Of a stretch of 64,000 nucleotides of DNA, positions 22,983 through 51,686 are shown in pieces. Where the stretch lies: positions 28,564 to 92,563 of the IMG/VR virus record IMGVR_UViG_3300044556_000025; one strand, written 5' to 3'. Numbering within the stretch: position 1 is the first letter of the stretch; every line of letters begins with the position of its first letter. The notes under the pieces were generated by a model that saw nothing but the letters and a program-made list of their open reading frames with translations, was not told the origin of the DNA and searched no databases. This DNA is from a virus (Duplodnaviria > Caudoviricetes). The position numbers were made by a program, and so were the translations under genes.

Positions 22983-23020
22983 ATAGGTATTGACTTTTCA
23001 TAAGTCGGTACTTATAATAT
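22983..23020 (+). promoter_or_regulatory. Strong early-type promoter, copy 1
   Basis: ATAGGTA-TTGACT-17 bp-TATAAT-AT. Confidence 0.75.
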
Positions 23021-31819: not shown

Positions 31820-31830
31820 GAGGATCAGCG

Positions 31831-32259
31831 ATGTGCGAGATTAGCGACAAAATCCGCAAATGGTGCGGCACTTGCCGTGACAGCTGCATCGACGAAGACG
31901 ATTGCGACGGGCTTCGAGACCTTGCCGACCGCGTGGACGCGGAGACAGTGGAGCTGCCGAAATCTGCGGATGGAAAAATCTGGACCGGCAGAGAGGTGTG
32001 CTTCTGGACCGGCGCGACGGAAGGAGACTGGCACGATTTTAATAGTCTCGTCTACATCAACGGCAAGTGGTGCGTAGAGGACAAACACTGGCAAAGGTAC
32101 CCGGCGGCATCTGCCTGGTACGAGCGCCCCGACAGCTTGGAGCGCATAGCCGACGAGCTGGACGAGATGGTGGATGCGGCAGACTCCGCCGACGATAGAT
32201 GCGAGAAGCTCGCCGACCTCGCGGAAAGAATCCGCAGGCTGGCAGCGAAGGAGGGCTAG
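31831..32259 (+). CDS. Hypothetical protein (island)
   Basis: AGGAGG RBS; LADRVDAE.VELPKSADG, PDSLERIADEL. Confidence 0.75.
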   Translation: MCEISDKIRKWCGTCRDSCIDEDDCDGLRDLADRVDAETVELPKSADGKIWTGREVCFWTGATEGDWHDFNSLVYINGKWCVEDKHWQRYPAASAWYERPDSLERIADELDEMVDAADSADDRCEKLADLAERIRRLAAKEG

Positions 32260-32261
32260 CG

Positions 32262-32564
32262 ATGAGCAAGATGTACACATTCATGTATGAGCCGATGACC
32301 CGCCAAAACGAGTACATCGTAAACGGCGGGATAATTCACGCGGTAAACACCAGCCGCATCGAAGACGTTCAATTTTGGGGAGACATGGCGCGCGTTTGCC
32401 TTGTTTCGGGTGCGAAGTTCAACGTAACGAGAGACGAAGCGATTCTCCTTTTGGATTCGCTCGACAGATGGCACGAAGGAGCTTCGAAGGAACTTGCCTA
32501 CATGGAGGATGCGGTCATGAAATACGAGAGCGCAAAGAGAGACGAAAAGGGTGACCAGCGATGA
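32262..32564 (+). CDS. Hypothetical protein (island)
   Basis: GGAGG RBS; MSKMYTF start. Confidence 0.7.
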   Translation: MSKMYTFMYEPMTRQNEYIVNGGIIHAVNTSRIEDVQFWGDMARVCLVSGAKFNVTRDEAILLLDSLDRWHEGASKELAYMEDAVMKYESAKRDEKGDQR

Positions 32565-32797
32565 ACGGTTCCGAACACGTGCATGAGTGCGTAGGCTCCT
32601 GGACTGACGATGGCGAATGGCAAGTCTCGCCTGGTGAGCCAATCGTCCGCTGCAAGGACTGCAAGCATGTGTACGAGCACCATGACGCTCGTGGTCGCTG
32701 GCTCCTGTGCGGCTTGCAACTTTACGATGAAGTAAAGCCAGAAGACTTCTGCTCGCGTGGCGAGACGGAGGAGGATTACAGCGATGGCACCGACTAG
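32561..32797 (+). CDS. IVRCKDC-type small Zn-binding protein
   Basis: PIVRCKDCKH...C...DFCSRG. Confidence 0.75.
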   Translation: MNGSEHVHECVGSWTDDGEWQVSPGEPIVRCKDCKHVYEHHDARGRWLLCGLQLYDEVKPEDFCSRGETEEDYSDGTD

Positions 32798-33134
32798 CGA
32801 CGAGCGCCGCGAGGTAGCGGCAAGGCTACGTGAGGACGCGAGCTGTAGCGAGAGGTCCACGCGCTTTGTCGTTGAGTCGTACCTTGGCATTGAGTACGAC
32901 GGCACCGATATGCTTGAGGAGTCTTACAAGAGCGAAAGTCTCTTGCACCTCGCCGACCTCATCGACCCTACGTGTACCGTCGAATCCGTGCGTATTCACA
33001 CGGGAAGTTTTGGATGTGAGGAAGCCGGCTATGAGTATACGCTGTCATGTGGTCACACAGTGATTGTCGATGGAGATTTCCCGCCCTCATACTGTGACGA
33101 ATGCGGCGCGAGGGTGGTGGGCGACGATGATTAG
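32784..33134 (+). CDS. ERREVAARLR/LADLIDPTC family protein with Zn ribbon
   Basis: Shared modules; CGH...YCDECGARV. Confidence 0.75.
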   Translation: MAPTSDERREVAARLREDASCSERSTRFVVESYLGIEYDGTDMLEESYKSESLLHLADLIDPTCTVESVRIHTGSFGCEEAGYEYTLSCGHTVIVDGDFPPSYCDECGARVVGDDD

Positions 33135-33474
33135 CGACGAGCGCCGCGAGGTGGCGGCAAGGCTGAGGGCAGAGGTCAGCGAGGGCGAGTGCATCGACTA
33201 CGCGGTCTTCCGCATCATCAACGACGTGCTCGGGGTCAATGACGCATGGGGTGCCAAGGCCGCGCGAATCCTCGCCGACCTCATCGACCCTACGTGTCAC
33301 ATCGTCTGTGTCGATGACACATACAACACGCCAGAGACAGGCCGTGTTGACGAGTGGCATTACGAGTGCAGCAAGTGTGGCATCGAGCTTGACGATAACG
33401 ATACGGATGTCATGGATAGTGGAGCAAAGCCGTTTGATTACTGCCCGAACTGCGGCGCGAGGGTGGTGCACTAA
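33127..33474 (+). CDS. ERREVAARLR/LADLIDPTC family protein with Zn ribbon
   Basis: CSKCG...YCPNCGARV. Confidence 0.75.
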   Translation: MISDERREVAARLRAEVSEGECIDYAVFRIINDVLGVNDAWGAKAARILADLIDPTCHIVCVDDTYNTPETGRVDEWHYECSKCGIELDDNDTDVMDSGAKPFDYCPNCGARVVH

Positions 33475-33683
33475 TGGCCGAGTACATCGTTGACACGACA
33501 GACGGCATCCTGCACGCCCGCACGACCGGCGAGCTGGTGAGGTGCAGGGACTGCGAGCACTACAGGCGCGGGCGCTGCGAGTGGCTGGCGCTCGACACCG
33601 GGGGCCGCATCGCCAAGCCGGTGCCGTTCAAGCCTGCGTCTGACGGCTTCTGCGCATGGGGAGAGAAGAGGGAGGGCGATTGA
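33474..33683 (+). CDS. LVRCRDC-type small Zn-binding protein
   Basis: GELVRCRDCEHY...GFCAWGE. Confidence 0.7.
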   Translation: MAEYIVDTTDGILHARTTGELVRCRDCEHYRRGRCEWLALDTGGRIAKPVPFKPASDGFCAWGEKREGD

Positions 33684-33832
33684 TGAACGAGAAGAAGCAG
33701 GCGCGTCTCGTGGAGCGTGGTCGCAACGAGCTGAACGGCGGAACATACGAGACGCGGGACATGGGCAACGGTCACGGCTTTTATGCGGACTTATACTTTG
33801 CATGGGGAAAGACGAAGGATTACAAGCGGTGA
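33683..33832 (+). CDS. 49-aa hypothetical protein (not in the ORF track)
   Basis: TGATG-coupled start; MNEKKQARLVERG...WGKTKDYKR*; overlaps the next GTG. Confidence 0.55.
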   Translation: MNEKKQARLVERGRNELNGGTYETRDMGNGHGFYADLYFAWGKTKDYKR

Positions 33833-34044
33833 ACGGATTCGAGCATATCCATGAATGCATCGGTTCCTGGACTGACGATGGCGTATGGCAGGTCTCGCCT
33901 GACGATCCAATCGTCCGCTGCAAGGACTGCGCGCTGTACGACCGAGAGGACGGGCTATGCTACCGCAGCCCGAACAGATGCGGGAGCTACCGACCAGCAC
34001 ACGACGACGGTTTCTGTGAGTGGGCAAAGAAGCTAGAGGACTAG
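33829..34044 (+). CDS. IVRCKDC-type small Zn-binding protein, paralogue of 32561
   Basis: Near-identical N-terminus NG.EH.HEC.GSWTDDG.WQVSP..PIVRCKDC. Confidence 0.75.
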   Translation: MNGFEHIHECIGSWTDDGVWQVSPDDPIVRCKDCALYDREDGLCYRSPNRCGSYRPAHDDGFCEWAKKLED

Positions 34045-34046
34045 CG

Positions 34047-34325
34047 ATAGCTAAGTTTCGCAAGAATCCGGTAGAGGTCGAAGCCTTTCAGATCTCGATG
34101 GACACTATGTGCAAACGCGAGTACCCCCAGTGGTTTTCCAAATCAGCAGCACAAGGTATCGTTAATATATCTGAGAACCCGAGCTACCCGGTTGCGTGCA
34201 CCATCAAGACGCTTGAAGGCGATATGAATGCATACATCGGCGATTACATCATCAAAGGCGTCAATGGCGAGCTCTACCCATGCAAGCCGGACATTTTCGA
34301 GAGAGGTTCCAGTGATGAACAATGA
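34047..34325 (+). CDS. PGDYG-like phage protein paralogue with ATA at the expected start (possible pseudogene)
   Basis: AKFRKNPVEVEAF...TLEG...GDYIIKGVNGELYPCKPDIF; tagcgATA here versus (t/c)agcgATG in neighbouring genes. Confidence 0.65.
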   Translation: MAKFRKNPVEVEAFQISMDTMCKREYPQWFSKSAAQGIVNISENPSYPVACTIKTLEGDMNAYIGDYIIKGVNGELYPCKPDIFERGSSDEQ

Positions 34326-34761
34326 TCTTGAGGACATCGCCAATCGAGTCATACGCGGCGATTTCGGCAATGGTGAGGACCGTGTGAAGGCTCTCCGTGA
34401 AGCTGGATATTGCTACGAAGAGGTCCAGAACAGGGTCAATGAGCTTCTCGGCGCGTTGGTGCCGGTACGCATTCCCAAAACGATCGGCACAAGCACACCC
34501 GGGTGCTGGATTGTATATTCTGACCAGCCCTGTAGCTGCGTCTGCATGGGCGACATGGTCGATGTCTATCACGATGCAGGCTGCAAAGAAAGCGGGCTCC
34601 TCACCGATGTCCAGTATGATCGCTTCGGCAAGCTGTCCATGGTATGCCTCAAGAAAGAGATAACAGGACCTGGATGGACCAAGTTCTGGCTTGGCGGTTC
34701 GGTGAAGGTCCAGTGGGTCCGCCATCCGACCGCCGTCTGCCATCACAGGGAGGGCAAATGA
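34315..34761 (+). CDS. Protein with N-terminal CW_7 (Cpl-7) cell-wall-binding repeat
   Basis: LEDIANRVIRGDFGNGEDRVKALREAGYCYEEVQNRVNELL. Confidence 0.75.
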   Translation: MNNDLEDIANRVIRGDFGNGEDRVKALREAGYCYEEVQNRVNELLGALVPVRIPKTIGTSTPGCWIVYSDQPCSCVCMGDMVDVYHDAGCKESGLLTDVQYDRFGKLSMVCLKKEITGPGWTKFWLGGSVKVQWVRHPTAVCHHREGK

Positions 34762-35018
34762 AGGCATATCTGATGAACCATGACGTGAACCTGGGCTACG
34801 GCGTAACCGAGTGGTGGAAGACCGAGGAAGAGGAAATCCTCTGCGTGCAATTCTACTCCGAAATAGGCGCGACTATGGTCTTCCCGTATGACATGGAGAA
34901 GGACCGTGTTCAGCACTGGAATCCTCTCTTGATGGGGCACAAGGACATGACCGGTGGCAGGGCCATGCAGGAGCTTGGCTATGAGCCGGTGGAAGGGGAC
35001 GAAGATGGCACCGACTAG
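34758..35018 (+). CDS. Hypothetical protein (island)
   Basis: GGAGG RBS; ATGA overlap with the previous gene. Confidence 0.7.
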   Translation: MKAYLMNHDVNLGYGVTEWWKTEEEEILCVQFYSEIGATMVFPYDMEKDRVQHWNPLLMGHKDMTGGRAMQELGYEPVEGDEDGTD

Positions 35019-35319
35019 CAACGAGCGCCGCGAGGTGGCGGCAAGGCTGAGGACTGAAGTCGGAGAGGATGAGTGTATCGACTATGCCGTGTTCCGAATC
35101 ATCAACGAGGCTCTTCTAATTAACGGCGCGTGGGGAGCGAAGGCAGCACGCATCCTTGCCGACCTCATAGACCCGACGTGCAAGGTAAGCTCCGTGGAGA
35201 CCTACGATGACGAGCTTGGCCAGCTTGAGGGCTGGGAGTTCCACCTGACATGTGGCCATAGCTTCCAGCGGCCATGGAACGAACCACAAGCATACTGTCC
35301 AGAATGCGGCGAAAGGTGA
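35005..35319 (+). CDS. ERREVAARLR/LADLIDPTC family protein with Zn ribbon
   Basis: Appears chimeric between the 32784 and 33127 genes. Confidence 0.75.
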   Translation: MAPTSNERREVAARLRTEVGEDECIDYAVFRIINEALLINGAWGAKAARILADLIDPTCKVSSVETYDDELGQLEGWEFHLTCGHSFQRPWNEPQAYCPECGER

Positions 35320-35325
35320 TGGACG

Positions 35326-35559
35326 ATGACTAGTATCGAAGAACGACGCGAGGTAGCGGCTAAACTAAGAAAGTACATTCCCTATGCAGAAATGCATGAC
35401 AAGCAAGGCGATTACGTCATGGAAAGCGACAAATGCGTCGATACTCGTTGTACGCTCTATAACAACATTGCATCTTGCATAGAAGACTGCGGAAACTTCA
35501 ACCTAAGTGCCAAAGAGATATTCACACGTCTCGCCGATCTCATCGACCCGAGCAAATAG
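35326..35559 (+). CDS. ERREVAAKLR/LADLIDP family protein (no Zn ribbon)
   Basis: Shared terminal modules around a unique middle. Confidence 0.7.
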   Translation: MTSIEERREVAAKLRKYIPYAEMHDKQGDYVMESDKCVDTRCTLYNNIASCIEDCGNFNLSAKEIFTRLADLIDPSK

Positions 35560-35605
35560 CTATTTCTTACATTCATACCTCCTCCTTTCGATTGACTATA
35601 TTTAC

Positions 35606-35656
35606 CCTCTTGCCGCGTGAGAAAGCCCCGAGGCTTTAGCCTCGGGGTAGCTCACT
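35606..35656 (+). mobile_element. 51-bp single-hairpin IS200/IS605-derived mini-element, copy A
   Basis: TTAC|cctcttgccgcgtgagAAAGccccgaggctttagcctcggggtagctcact; identical inverted copy at 51402-51452. Confidence 0.85.
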
Positions 35657-35680
35657 GGTTGTAGTTCTATATAGCGAAGC

Positions 35681-35722
35681 GTGCTCTCCGCATATGCGTG
35701 GATGATCCTGTGGGGATGATCT
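35681..35722 (+). CRISPR. Solitary degenerate type I-E-like CRISPR repeat plus a half repeat (no array, no cas genes)
   Basis: GTGCTCTCCGCATATGCGTGGATGATCC followed by tGTGGGGATGATCT. Confidence 0.55.
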
Positions 35723-35777
35723 CACAGCCCAGCCAACCATCTATTTAATCAGAACATATATCTAGATGATTAAATAG

Positions 35778-38700
35778 GTGCGTAAGTATATGGCTGACAA
35801 CAATAACACGAATGCCAATAACATAGACTTCAGTGGCCTTTATCAAGACAATAGGACAGAACAAGACTACTTGAGATCGATAGATCGTCGCCTTAAAGAT
35901 CTAACTTCGCAGCTGTCTAATATGTCACAGGCGTCTGCCCAAGACCGACGAAATAATACGTCTGACCAGAATTGGCGCAACGCAGGCAAAGCAGACGCAC
36001 AAAAAGCTCGCCGTCGTTTACAGAATTCACAAAAAGACTTCTTAGACGGCATAGACGAAGCTGTTTCGCAGGCTCTGGGTCTTTCTGACATGCAGAAGCG
36101 TCTAGAAAAAGCTGCTGACGAGTTTGCCGACGCTTTGGGCGCAAATATAAAAGACATGCCATATAAGCTGGGCAAGAAGTCTACAGAGTACGCAATTTCT
36201 ATATTTGAGTCTGTGCCGGGAGTAAAGCCGCTAGCCGACCAATTAACTAAAAGCCGAAACGCATATTTCGAAGAAGCCCTTAAGTACCAGAAGAACGCGA
36301 CAGAGCGAATCAAAGCGCAGAGAGAAAAAGCGGAGCTAGAAGCCAAGAAACAGCAAATTGCGGCTGAGAAGTCTGAATTTGCAAAAGCTTTCTCGTCTGA
36401 AAAGGGAACAAAGGGATATAACGAAGCTCTAGGTGAATACGACGATCAGCTTTCAGACATAGAAAAGAAGATAGCCGGAATTAAGAAGCCCGGAAACATT
36501 GGGTTCAAAGGCTTAAAAGACGTATTTACGTCTGACATGTCATCATGGAGAGACTTTGCATCTAACGCAAAGTCAACAATAGGCTCTAACTTTATGAGCG
36601 GGTACGGCCTTGTCGGCGACTTGTCAAACGGGGCAGGGAAAGAGCTTTTAGCTAAATTTGCGCCAGACATTGCAGACGCTGTATCTGGTGGGTTGTCGGG
36701 GCTACTTTCTGCCTCGGGAGGACCCGTTGGACTTGCAATAACTGCGGGCGTAGAAGTTATTACAAGCACTATAGACGCAACGTTAGGCAAGAGCCTCGAG
36801 AACGTAGCCGAAGACTTCGATAAGCTGATGAAGGGTCTTGCGACAACCGTAAACCGAGGCGCAGACTCTGCACGCAAGGCAACAGAAGAAGGAAACAAGC
36901 GCTTACGAGCCGATACAGAAACGCTTATTAGAGAGCCCTTCGAAATACTTAAGAAGTCAGCTCAAGAAGTATATGACGCTTGGGACAGCAACGTAAGGCT
37001 TATAAATCAGACTCAAGGGTATTCTAAGACCGATCTCATGAATTTGATGGAGAGCTACTCGTCTCGCTTGAAGTCTGAGGGCCTAACGTCAGAAATTGAC
37101 GCAGCTAACATAACAAACAACTTAGCAAAAGTCCTTCAGTCCGGCCTACAAGGCGACGTTGCGACAGAGTTTGCATACGAAGCTACAAAGCTTAACGCTG
37201 CTATACCGACACAGGACTTCTTCCAGTACGCTAGTACGTATGCGTCTCTAGCCGCAAACGCTGTCAAAGACGGAATGTCTCAAAGCGAAGCTATTAAATA
37301 TGCGACGCAACAATTAGAGCTATTTGCGTCAGACATTGCGTATGCCAGCAGGCAGCTCACTGGCGGGTTCTCGTCTGGGTTGTCTGACGCAGCAGATCTG
37401 TTCCAGAAGGCTGTTCAAATATCTGTAGCTGCAAAGACTAATAACCCGTCAAACCTTGCAGGAACTCTTACGTCTGTCTCAGCTACAGTAGGAGCTGTAG
37501 CACCAGATCTTACGTCATCTATAGTAGACGCTGTATATAATGCGGCTGTAGGAGGAAACAGCAGTCAAATAGTTGCTCTCAGGTCGTTGGCTGGCATCAA
37601 TGCGTCAAATACCGAGTTCTTAAAAGAATTCGCTAACAACCCTCAAGGAATACTATACGATCTATTCTCTAAGCTCGGCAGCATGCAGAAGATGTCTTCT
37701 TCTAACTACATGGAAGTTGCTGAGGGCTTGTCTAACGTATTCGGAATATCTTCAGACGCACTGTCTCGAGTTGACTTTAATTACTTAGCCGACGCTGTTA
37801 AGAGTATGAAAGTCAGCAATTCGTCGCTACAAGAAAATATAAGCTTGCTGAAGTCTGGTCAGTCTACGACAAACGCCGACCAGATGAAGATGGATCAAGT
37901 TAACAAATATATCCTAGACGAAGGCCTCACATACGTACTAGACAACGAAGCGGGTCGCGCAATACAGGAGCACATGTGGGACGAACAAGAGAACATTAAG
38001 CTTATGCAGAATACCTACGGAGTAGAGCTCCGAGGCCAAGCTTTGTCACTCTTAACGTCTATCGGTTCTACAATACAAACTATCCTCGGTTTCTTGAACC
38101 CATTCTCATCATATAACCCACTAACTAATCTGATAAAGACTACGGTAGAAGCTTCCACAGCTGACGACAGCGTTAAGGCAGTTCTCGAAGCCGGAAAGAT
38201 AGGCTCAGGGAATCAAGAAGTTCTTAGCAATCTTACAACTTACGGCAAAGACCTCAATCTAACTAATAGCTATCTGTCTATGATACAGAAAGCCGTTTCG
38301 GGACAGCCTACAAAGTACGAATGGGGCGAGCTTGCTAAGAGTGCGTACAAGAGCTTAGGTACGTCCGCTACGGGCGCACAAATCTCTTCTGGCTCATCGA
38401 TAAACAACGCAAACTACTCTAAAACGATAAATCTTCAGAGAATGGGGTCGAGCTTCTCCAGGATGCTCGATACCATGCCAAACTTCTTTACGTCTACAGT
38501 AGATGACAAAGTTCAGAACGCTATAAAACAAGAGACATCTCGCTTAGCTTCAAATTACGTAAATGAAATATCTAAGAGCACTATATCGAAGACCGTAGAC
38601 GAATATATCGCTAACCCTGAGAAGTATGGAATTGGCGACATTATATACAGCTCTAAGCTTGCGGGAGCTAGCAAAGCGTCGGGGCTTTCTGGTTTCAACG

Positions 38701-39611
38701 AAGAGGTTCAAGCAAGATCGCGTCAACTGGTAGAGCAAAAAGTAATTTCTGATCTTACAGAAAAAGCTAAACAAGACGCTAAAGCCCAAGCTTATCAGAA
38801 CGTCATTACAAAAGCCGATTCCGGATATTACGGAAGCACGGGCTACAATGCGTGGGCAGCGTCTGCGTCAAAGTACGGAATATCCGATCTTGCGTCTGTA
38901 ATGGACGAACTCGGATATACAGAAGCAGACGTGCAAAATTACTTTAACACGTTAGATGCTCAATACGGTCAGCGTGCAACGCAAGAACGCGAAAAGACTG
39001 AGGAAGATTTCTGGCAAAACGTACAAGATCTACTTACGCTTTCAAACTCTTACGTACACGACGTATTTGACAAAGGCGACGTCATGGGCATATTCTGGCC
39101 CGGTATAGACAGCTGGCTCAGCGATATTGACTCTACGGGTACGTCAGGCGGAAAGACAGTAGGCGGGTCCGGGTTCCGCGGTGAGATGAATGAATGGTTC
39201 TATCAAACCGACGCAGACATAAACTCGTTCCATACAGAAATGATAACCCAGTTTAAAGAGTTTAGAAAAGACTGGACAGACTTCTATATCAATCACACAA
39301 CATATACACAGCACCTTACGGGTACGTCTGATGGTAAATCACTCCTAAATCAGCTGGACGAAGTAAAGTCTAAGGAAGGGAAGACGACAGAAGACGTTAT
39401 TAACACGCTGTCTGACGCACTAATGAAGAACAACATAGGCGATCTGCTCGACCCAACAGTGCAAACAAACGTGTTCTTGGCGTCTATATTGCAGGCAGTT
39501 CAAACGATTGTTCAGCAAAACAACACTCAGGGCAAGCTCAAGCTACCTGACGCAATTTCTGCTCTTGCAACGGGCATGACCGTTAGCACTAATACAAATA
39601 CAAATGCCTAA
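35778..39611 (+). CDS. Tape measure protein
   Basis: 1277 aa, Ala/Ser/Gln-rich and helical; follows the chaperone in gene order; start may be the ATG at 35790. Confidence 0.8.
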   Translation: MRKYMADNNNTNANNIDFSGLYQDNRTEQDYLRSIDRRLKDLTSQLSNMSQASAQDRRNNTSDQNWRNAGKADAQKARRRLQNSQKDFLDGIDEAVSQALGLSDMQKRLEKAADEFADALGANIKDMPYKLGKKSTEYAISIFESVPGVKPLADQLTKSRNAYFEEALKYQKNATERIKAQREKAELEAKKQQIAAEKSEFAKAFSSEKGTKGYNEALGEYDDQLSDIEKKIAGIKKPGNIGFKGLKDVFTSDMSSWRDFASNAKSTIGSNFMSGYGLVGDLSNGAGKELLAKFAPDIADAVSGGLSGLLSASGGPVGLAITAGVEVITSTIDATLGKSLENVAEDFDKLMKGLATTVNRGADSARKATEEGNKRLRADTETLIREPFEILKKSAQEVYDAWDSNVRLINQTQGYSKTDLMNLMESYSSRLKSEGLTSEIDAANITNNLAKVLQSGLQGDVATEFAYEATKLNAAIPTQDFFQYASTYASLAANAVKDGMSQSEAIKYATQQLELFASDIAYASRQLTGGFSSGLSDAADLFQKAVQISVAAKTNNPSNLAGTLTSVSATVGAVAPDLTSSIVDAVYNAAVGGNSSQIVALRSLAGINASNTEFLKEFANNPQGILYDLFSKLGSMQKMSSSNYMEVAEGLSNVFGISSDALSRVDFNYLADAVKSMKVSNSSLQENISLLKSGQSTTNADQMKMDQVNKYILDEGLTYVLDNEAGRAIQEHMWDEQENIKLMQNTYGVELRGQALSLLTSIGSTIQTILGFLNPFSSYNPLTNLIKTTVEASTADDSVKAVLEAGKIGSGNQEVLSNLTTYGKDLNLTNSYLSMIQKAVSGQPTKYEWGELAKSAYKSLGTSATGAQISSGSSINNANYSKTINLQRMGSSFSRMLDTMPNFFTSTVDDKVQNAIKQETSRLASNYVNEISKSTISKTVDEYIANPEKYGIGDIIYSSKLAGASKASGLSGFNEEVQARSRQLVEQKVISDLTEKAKQDAKAQAYQNVITKADSGYYGSTGYNAWAASASKYGISDLASVMDELGYTEADVQNYFNTLDAQYGQRATQEREKTEEDFWQNVQDLLTLSNSYVHDVFDKGDVMGIFWPGIDSWLSDIDSTGTSGGKTVGGSGFRGEMNEWFYQTDADINSFHTEMITQFKEFRKDWTDFYINHTTYTQHLTGTSDGKSLLNQLDEVKSKEGKTTEDVINTLSDALMKNNIGDLLDPTVQTNVFLASILQAVQTIVQQNNTQGKLKLPDAISALATGMTVSTNTNTNA

Positions 39612-51401: not shown

Positions 51402-51452
51402 AGTGAGCTACCCCGAGGCTAAAGCCTCGGGGCTTTCTCACGCGGCAAGAGG
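51402..51452 (-). mobile_element. 51-bp single-hairpin mini-element, copy B, inserted in a terminator-like hairpin
   Basis: Exact reverse complement of 35606-35656, preceded by TTAC on the minus strand. Excision restores agagccgatagtaa-ttc-ttactatcggctct. Confidence 0.88.
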
Positions 51453-51686
51453 GTAATTCTTACTATCGGCTCTTATATATAGAATAAATACATAGTATAC
51501 TATCCACGTGTTAGGATATACGTATGTCAGAAGATTACAGTAACCCTAGATTACGAAAAGCTTAAGATGACAGTAGCCGTAGAAACTAAATTTACAAAAA
51601 CGGTAGAAGTTAAACTTTAGTTCGTTAATAATACTAAATACTAAAGTTGTAATCTTGCATTTTTAGTGTTTAGGAGCGTAGTTAAT

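Follow-up and report, generated by a model that had tools for sequence, protein, structure and literature searches.

The accessory island upstream of the tape-measure-like gene

The window (64,000 nt, the whole stretch of DNA that was analysed) belongs to a 92.5-kb IMG/VR virus record which is ~61% complete, has a GC content of ~42% and carries all of its genes on the + strand. An island of ~4 kb with 55 to 65% GC (31820..35789, + strand) lies between the tail chaperone gene and a tape-measure-like structural gene (35790..39611, + strand). The tape-measure-like protein (1273 aa) is a member of a large family and its gene is kept in a family of ~120–180 kb phages. The island contains paralogous small cassette genes (phrog_21525) and a CW_7 protein. 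The cassette paralogs (31820–35560) have the modules ERREVAARLR and LADLIDP in common. The last of them (35326..35559, + strand, 45% GC) encodes a truncated phrog_21525 paralog of 77 aa. It is followed by a 230-nt gap before the start of the 1273-aa gene at 35790. A CRISPR repeat fragment was found in this gap, at the 3' edge of the island.

The region was compared with 53 related IMG/VR loci with 7-kb flanks (833 kb in total; P0001, which carries a 98% identical tape-measure-like homolog, is not among them). In these relatives the gap between the chaperone gene (with its extension) and the tape-measure-like gene is 13 to 145 nt long and contains no cassette genes, and the GC content is 32 to 46%. 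It was concluded that 31820–35789 is a lineage-specific insertion. The relatives, too, have a hairpin between the two genes. The sequence-only reading, made from the DNA letters before this analysis, had proposed conservation in related phages as a check. No sequence within 7 substitutions of the repeat and no match to its flanks was found in the 53 loci. A metagenome scan for close relatives returned distant ones only. Among GenBank phages no relatives were found by the region, the island or the tape-measure-like protein, and the sole match was a 100-bp patch.

This ~100-bp patch (34202–34300) is located in a 101-aa ORF (34020–34325) and shows a 73 to 83% nucleotide match in very diverse GenBank phages. 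The matches listed are from phages of Curtobacterium, Arthrobacter, Gordonia, Microbacterium and Bacillus, and the tally adds Staphylococcus, Vibrio and others. The counterparts are sometimes annotated within MazG-like or hypothetical genes. The nucleotide conservation of the patch is unusually broad.

A type I-E repeat copy joined to a half copy

The segment 35681..35708 (+ strand, GTGCTCTCCGCATATGCGTGGATGATCC; termed R1) was identified by array homology as a full-length 28-nt type I-E CRISPR repeat copy. The type I-E repeat family has the form GTGCTCCCCGC-NNNN-GCGGGGATGATCC, which is present in real arrays; reversed-pattern controls gave 0 matches there. A degenerate I-E pattern (three mismatches or fewer) matched once in the window and was not found in 100 shuffles. 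By our own estimate ~2e-7 chance matches of at least 25/28 are expected per repeat sequence in the phage genome. R1 agrees with the Atopobiaceae array consensus in 25 of 28 bases and with rare variant repeats in 26 of 28, and the longest unbroken identity to the consensus is only 9 bp. It carries the stem changes C7T and G19T and the loop ATAT, which is one base off every array consensus. The 5' handle ATGATCC is still intact. The homology to repeats beside I-E cas genes extends over the full 28 nt. Judged from these sequence comparisons, R1 is genuinely related to the type I-E CRISPR repeat and the match is not due to chance. The type I-E-like repeat at this position and its two stem substitutions, both proposed in the sequence-only reading, were thus borne out by real arrays, and the match to known CRISPR repeats that it had suggested as a check yields a host or gene-pool clue (Atopobiaceae).

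R1 is solitary and is not accompanied by cas genes, as had been claimed. No second repeat-like copy within 8 substitutions and no Cas6e gene were found in the 92.5-kb record. The spacing of an array (~32–33-nt spacers, 61-nt period) is absent at this locus, where there is one full copy and an adjoining half copy only. An exact copy of R1 had no match in IMG/VR and an Rfam search of the region returned noise only.

The half copy (R2', 35709..35722, + strand, TGTGGGGATGATCT) corresponds to repeat positions 15–28 with C17T and C28T. These 14 nt are joined straight to R1 with zero spacer and are followed by CACAG. The R2' core matches the repeat in 10 of 10 positions, and R2' agrees in 13 of 13 with a naturally occurring variant from the G252 genome's array. 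R2' and CACAG give a 7–8 bp hairpin (35708..35727, + strand, CUGUGGGG-AUGA-UCUCACAG) with in-context pair probabilities of 0.78 to 0.80 and an isolated energy of -8.9 kcal/mol, and it is predicted to be the structure that forms in the repeat stretch. The second 3' half with its own hairpin and no spacer-sized gap had been recognized before this analysis, and its description was accurate. A mini-array with a guide was considered and rejected; a spacer is absent, and nothing matching the flanks was found in the relatives or elsewhere in the genome.

State of the Cas6e stem

Maturation of I-E crRNA needs a stable 7-bp stem, a 4-nt loop and a conserved repeat sequence (PMC5965381). In R1, C7T turns one base pair into a U7.G20 wobble and G19T leaves a C8/U19 mismatch; the two changes fall in different base pairs and are not compensatory. 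The canonical hairpin energy is -6.5 kcal/mol for R1 vs -13.1 and -14.3 kcal/mol for host repeats, as computed by ViennaRNA, and protein-assisted folding lies outside the reach of such energies. The canonical stem pairs of R1 have a probability of 0.00 to 0.09 each in the native context. The stable 6–7 bp stem with a 4-nt loop that makes up the Cas6e 3' handle is therefore not present in R1. All four to five differences from the consensus (C7T, loop G14A and G19T; C17'T and C28'T in the half copy) are changes from G/C to A/T, as expected from neutral drift in a phage of ~42% GC.

The repeat stretch is bracketed by TGGTTG (35656–61) and CAACCA (35735–40). This bracket had been pointed out in the sequence-only reading and is indeed present, but it carries no structural weight since shuffles of the 84 bracketed nucleotides fold just as well (z = +0.21).

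Expression signals and flanking elements

No sigma-70-like promoter was found on the + strand at the repeat region and no terminator-like site was scored there. The phage has a strong promoter motif of its own, ataggtaTTGACa-N17/18-TATAAT (last base of ataggtaTTGACa or t), in three near-identical copies at 22983, 27951 and 28280, which were confirmed by eye. This motif is absent near the repeat. The upstream flank of R1 resembles host leaders no more than shuffles do, and a captured leader plus first repeat was rejected on this basis.

A 55-bp element with a strong GC hairpin (35602..35656, + strand; hairpin 35625–35648, ccccgaggc-ttta-gcctcgggg) is located 24 nt upstream of R1. A perfect inverted duplicate is present at 51402–51456, inside a longer interrupted palindrome (agagccgata...tatcggctct). 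The duplicate has the appearance of a small mobile hairpin element, or else of a shared terminator module. It had been suggested that this element, then taken as 51 bp, may have altered expression by separating the repeat from a TTGACT. The TTGACT is at 35591–96 (one base off the position 35592 given before), and no promoter was detected with or without the element. Restoration of a promoter by removal of 51 or 55 bp was rejected as well; TTGACT then lies 19 or 15 nt from TATATA, and none of the hexamer pairs passed. Downstream of the repeat, an AT-rich hairpin of ~14 bp (35741..35777, + strand) lies just 5' of the RBS and start (35790) of the tape-measure-like gene. It may act as an operator or in the control of translation.

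Matching arrays in Atopobiaceae

We scanned genome_contigs (one genome per species, 185,579 species) with R1 as the query, allowing C/T and G/T at the two odd stem positions. The scan found a single place. It is one of the more than 50 repeats of an array from an uncultured Atopobiaceae genome, where the consensus is GTGCTCCCCGCATGTGCGGGGATGATCC and the repeats have a period of 61 nt. Matching arrays were present in 14 of 272 Atopobiaceae genomes, and their repeats differ only in the 4-nt loop (ATGT, ACAT, ATAC or GTAT). Reversed-pattern controls across the 272 genomes gave 0 matches. In four of five genomes tested, a Cas6e gene (PF08798) precedes the arrays by 1.5–2 kb and is encoded on the same strand. 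The arrays are therefore type I-E, and R1 is in the transcribed sense relative to Cas6e and the host arrays. Terminal repeats of the host arrays decay in a similar fashion; one example is the terminal repeat in genome G247 (GTGCCCTCCGCATATGTGGGAATGACTC), which has T7 and the loop ATAT as in R1.

No match to the 92.5-kb phage was found among 526 spacers from 13 matching array loci (mean GC 64%; best match to the phage 18/21). The host array loci have 62 to 67% GC vs 42% for the phage backbone, ~20 points apart. The apparently low GC of one array locus (L027, 43%) turned out to be an artefact of masked N runs.

The island genes were also traced. Among 41 genomes related to the Atopobiaceae genome, 6 have the phrog_21525 family, often in tandem; none of 14 control genomes has it. 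Short modules of the island show 85 to 100% nucleotide identity over 23–49 nt to a 62% GC locus (L092) from a relative of the Atopobiaceae MAG, where the family is in tandem too. Searches of five array-bearing genomes did not turn up the cassette protein. Intact repeats of the R1 family are present on three high-GC IMG/VR contigs, as arrays or a mini-array, and the cassette genes are absent beside them. In a 68% GC IMG/VR contig (L089:378–560), three repeats of this I-E family make up a mini-array that has a leader-like ...caggaagt junction and whose last repeat is degenerate; the mini-array is either phage-borne or host DNA at a prophage border. The cassette modules and the repeat type thus point towards the Atopobiaceae mobilome, and the phage backbone is unlike those genomes in composition. 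It is plausible that the phage host has an Atopobiaceae-type I-E system.

Origin of the repeat fragment

We consider that, on balance, the stretch is probably a decaying fragment of a type I-E CRISPR array or mini-array, a relic. Its source would be an I-E array of the kind found in high-GC Atopobiaceae. R1 joined to R2' is what would remain of a repeat-spacer-repeat unit after loss of the spacer and of the initial 14 nt of the second repeat. The fragment may have arrived by capture, along with horizontally acquired DNA of the Atopobiaceae gene pool, or may have been left by the collapse of a once-working phage mini-array or solitary repeat, and its function was presumably lost. Any transcription today would be as part of a long message that extends from the cassette genes to the tape-measure-like gene. 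The Cas6e stem-loop is no longer the fold that is favoured in the prediction, so that the fragment most likely has no anti-CRISPR activity and is drifting toward the AT-rich composition of the phage. The intact handle ATGATCC, the 25 of 28 bases retained, the sense orientation and the intergenic spot in an accessory island speak against a relic. Accessory islands are where RNA anti-CRISPRs (Racrs) and acr genes tend to sit.

The sequence-only reading had left the choice between a Racr and a collapsed mini-array. A collapsed mini-array or relic fits the direct R1-R2' joint and the mutations in both pieces, while a working Racr is disfavoured by the stem, promoter, leader, conservation and spacer results. 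As a working type I-E Racr, the transcript of 35657–35740 would offer the repeat hairpin to host Cas6e, and the RNA, once bound or processed, would draw Cas6e and Cas7 into dead-end complexes, with less interference against the phage. We regard this as unlikely, but it has several points in its favour. R1 is a true I-E repeat homolog in sense orientation; it is solitary and intergenic in a record with no Cas6e, and it sits in a lineage-specific accessory island. The cassette genes and modules common to the island and to the Atopobiaceae relatives suggest that the phage may meet an I-E system. On viral sequences 2,103 solitary repeat units have been reported, and I-E Racrs have been validated experimentally (PMC10651486). 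A promoter of its own is not required, as RacrIC1-AcrIC5 is a Racr within a longer mRNA (PMC10651486), and Cas6e could clamp a weakened stem.

Against a working Racr, the non-compensatory stem damage halves the hairpin energy and brings the pair probabilities to 0.09 or less, and an analogous base-of-stem mutation in RacrIF1 abolished Cas6f binding and inhibition (PMC10651486). There is neither a promoter nor a leader, and with a late structural gene directly downstream, expression would be expected late and not early. The copy is absent in the 53 relatives, 0 of the 526 matching-array spacers target the phage, and the GC content of the phage backbone (42%) and its relatives (32–46%) is far from the 62–67% at the host array loci. 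SRUFinder calls a solitary repeat unit from an intergenic full-length match of at least 41.1 bits with no partial repeat in the 100-bp flanks (PMC10651486). The blastn-short score of R1 is 32.2 bits with the consensus and 40.1 bits with rare variants, a near miss for which the BLAST settings of SRUFinder may differ. The 14-nt half copy adjoins R1, so the copy is not truly solitary by the SRUFinder rules and would be discarded. In the accessible part of the Racr paper supplements, neither the R1 sequence nor the host repeats are listed (PMC10651486).

The repeat similarity might also be incidental. In that case the stretch would have a structural or regulatory role as RNA, either in the 5' UTR of the tape-measure-like gene or at the 3' end of the cassette operon, with the hairpins 35708–35727, 35625–35648 and 35741–35777 acting as a stabiliser, attenuator or processing site. 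The intergenic region 35560–35795 as a whole does fold far better than shuffles (z = -3.9), the hairpin 35708–35727 has pair probabilities of ~0.8, and the relatives also carry a hairpin in the chaperone/tape-measure gap. However, the z-score is driven by the 55-bp element and the AT-rich hairpins, whereas the repeat stretch alone has z = +0.21. No site scored as terminator-like, the relatives share nothing of this stretch, and the 25/28 identity to the repeat would be left unexplained. We consider a structural element quite improbable.

A more unusual form of decoy would be one that cannot be cleaved. The weak stem would be bound by Cas6e without turnover, and together with the two AUGAUC handles, one of which is displayed by a stable hairpin, it would capture Cas6e and the handle-binding Cascade subunits simultaneously. 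If true, this would be a Racr architecture unlike those described so far, but we think it very improbable. An attachment-site mimic by which the phage or island recombines with, or integrates into, host CRISPR arrays and disrupts them is scarcely credible; solitary repeats have been proposed as a hypothesis to play such a role (PMC10651486) and R1 has 25–26/28 identity to host repeats, but the 92.5-kb record (61% complete) encodes no tyrosine or serine recombinase (integrase or resolvase), the large phage family brings its own replication genes and the parts seen show no sign of lysogeny, and the longest uninterrupted identity to the consensus is 9 bp.

Comparison with known systems

The fragment was compared with four kinds of repeat-derived elements. 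Like the viral solitary repeat units and Racrs (e.g., RacrIE1 and RacrIE2; Camara-Wilpert et al., 2023, PMC10651486), it is a single intergenic repeat look-alike in sense orientation with no cas genes, and its subtype I-E matches the arrays of a plausible host group. It differs from them in the two non-compensatory stem changes, the missing upstream promoter and the abutting partial repeat. Its score is below the cut-off, it has no recognisable acr neighbour and it is not conserved.

Virus-borne mini-CRISPR arrays consist of repeat-spacer-repeat with no cas genes (PMC10651486, PMC11656645). Two repeat-derived pieces adjoin on the phage, which is consistent with descent from such a mini-array. 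The phage fragment differs in having no spacer, a second repeat without its first 14 nt and no leader, and no guide RNA is possible. Phage crRNA-like regulatory RNAs (crlRNAs) come from mini-arrays as well, according to the preprint abstract (bioRxiv 10.1101/2024.10.29.618823). Like the fragment, they are phage-borne and repeat-like, and as RNA elements they exploit host Cas proteins. We take it that a crlRNA requires a spacer-like segment for pairing with a host promoter or toxin gene, whereas there is nothing between the two repeat pieces in the phage.

The degenerate terminal repeats at the trailer ends of chromosomal I-E arrays have decayed in the same way and to the same degree as the fragment, and some repeats there are truncated as well. 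In contrast to these, the phage copy is found in a phage genome without an array, and its flanks match no host leader or trailer examined.

If the fragment were active after all, it would be one more I-E Racr, a known kind. With its non-compensatory stem changes, AT-only drift and abutting half repeat it is a useful negative example for Racr screens. It also provides a host or gene-pool clue for a phage family without a cultured member. The fragment is a degraded member of an already known kind and is of value mainly as a record of gene flow, in which a large phage of ~42% GC carries an island of 55–65% GC that ends in an Atopobiaceae-type I-E repeat.
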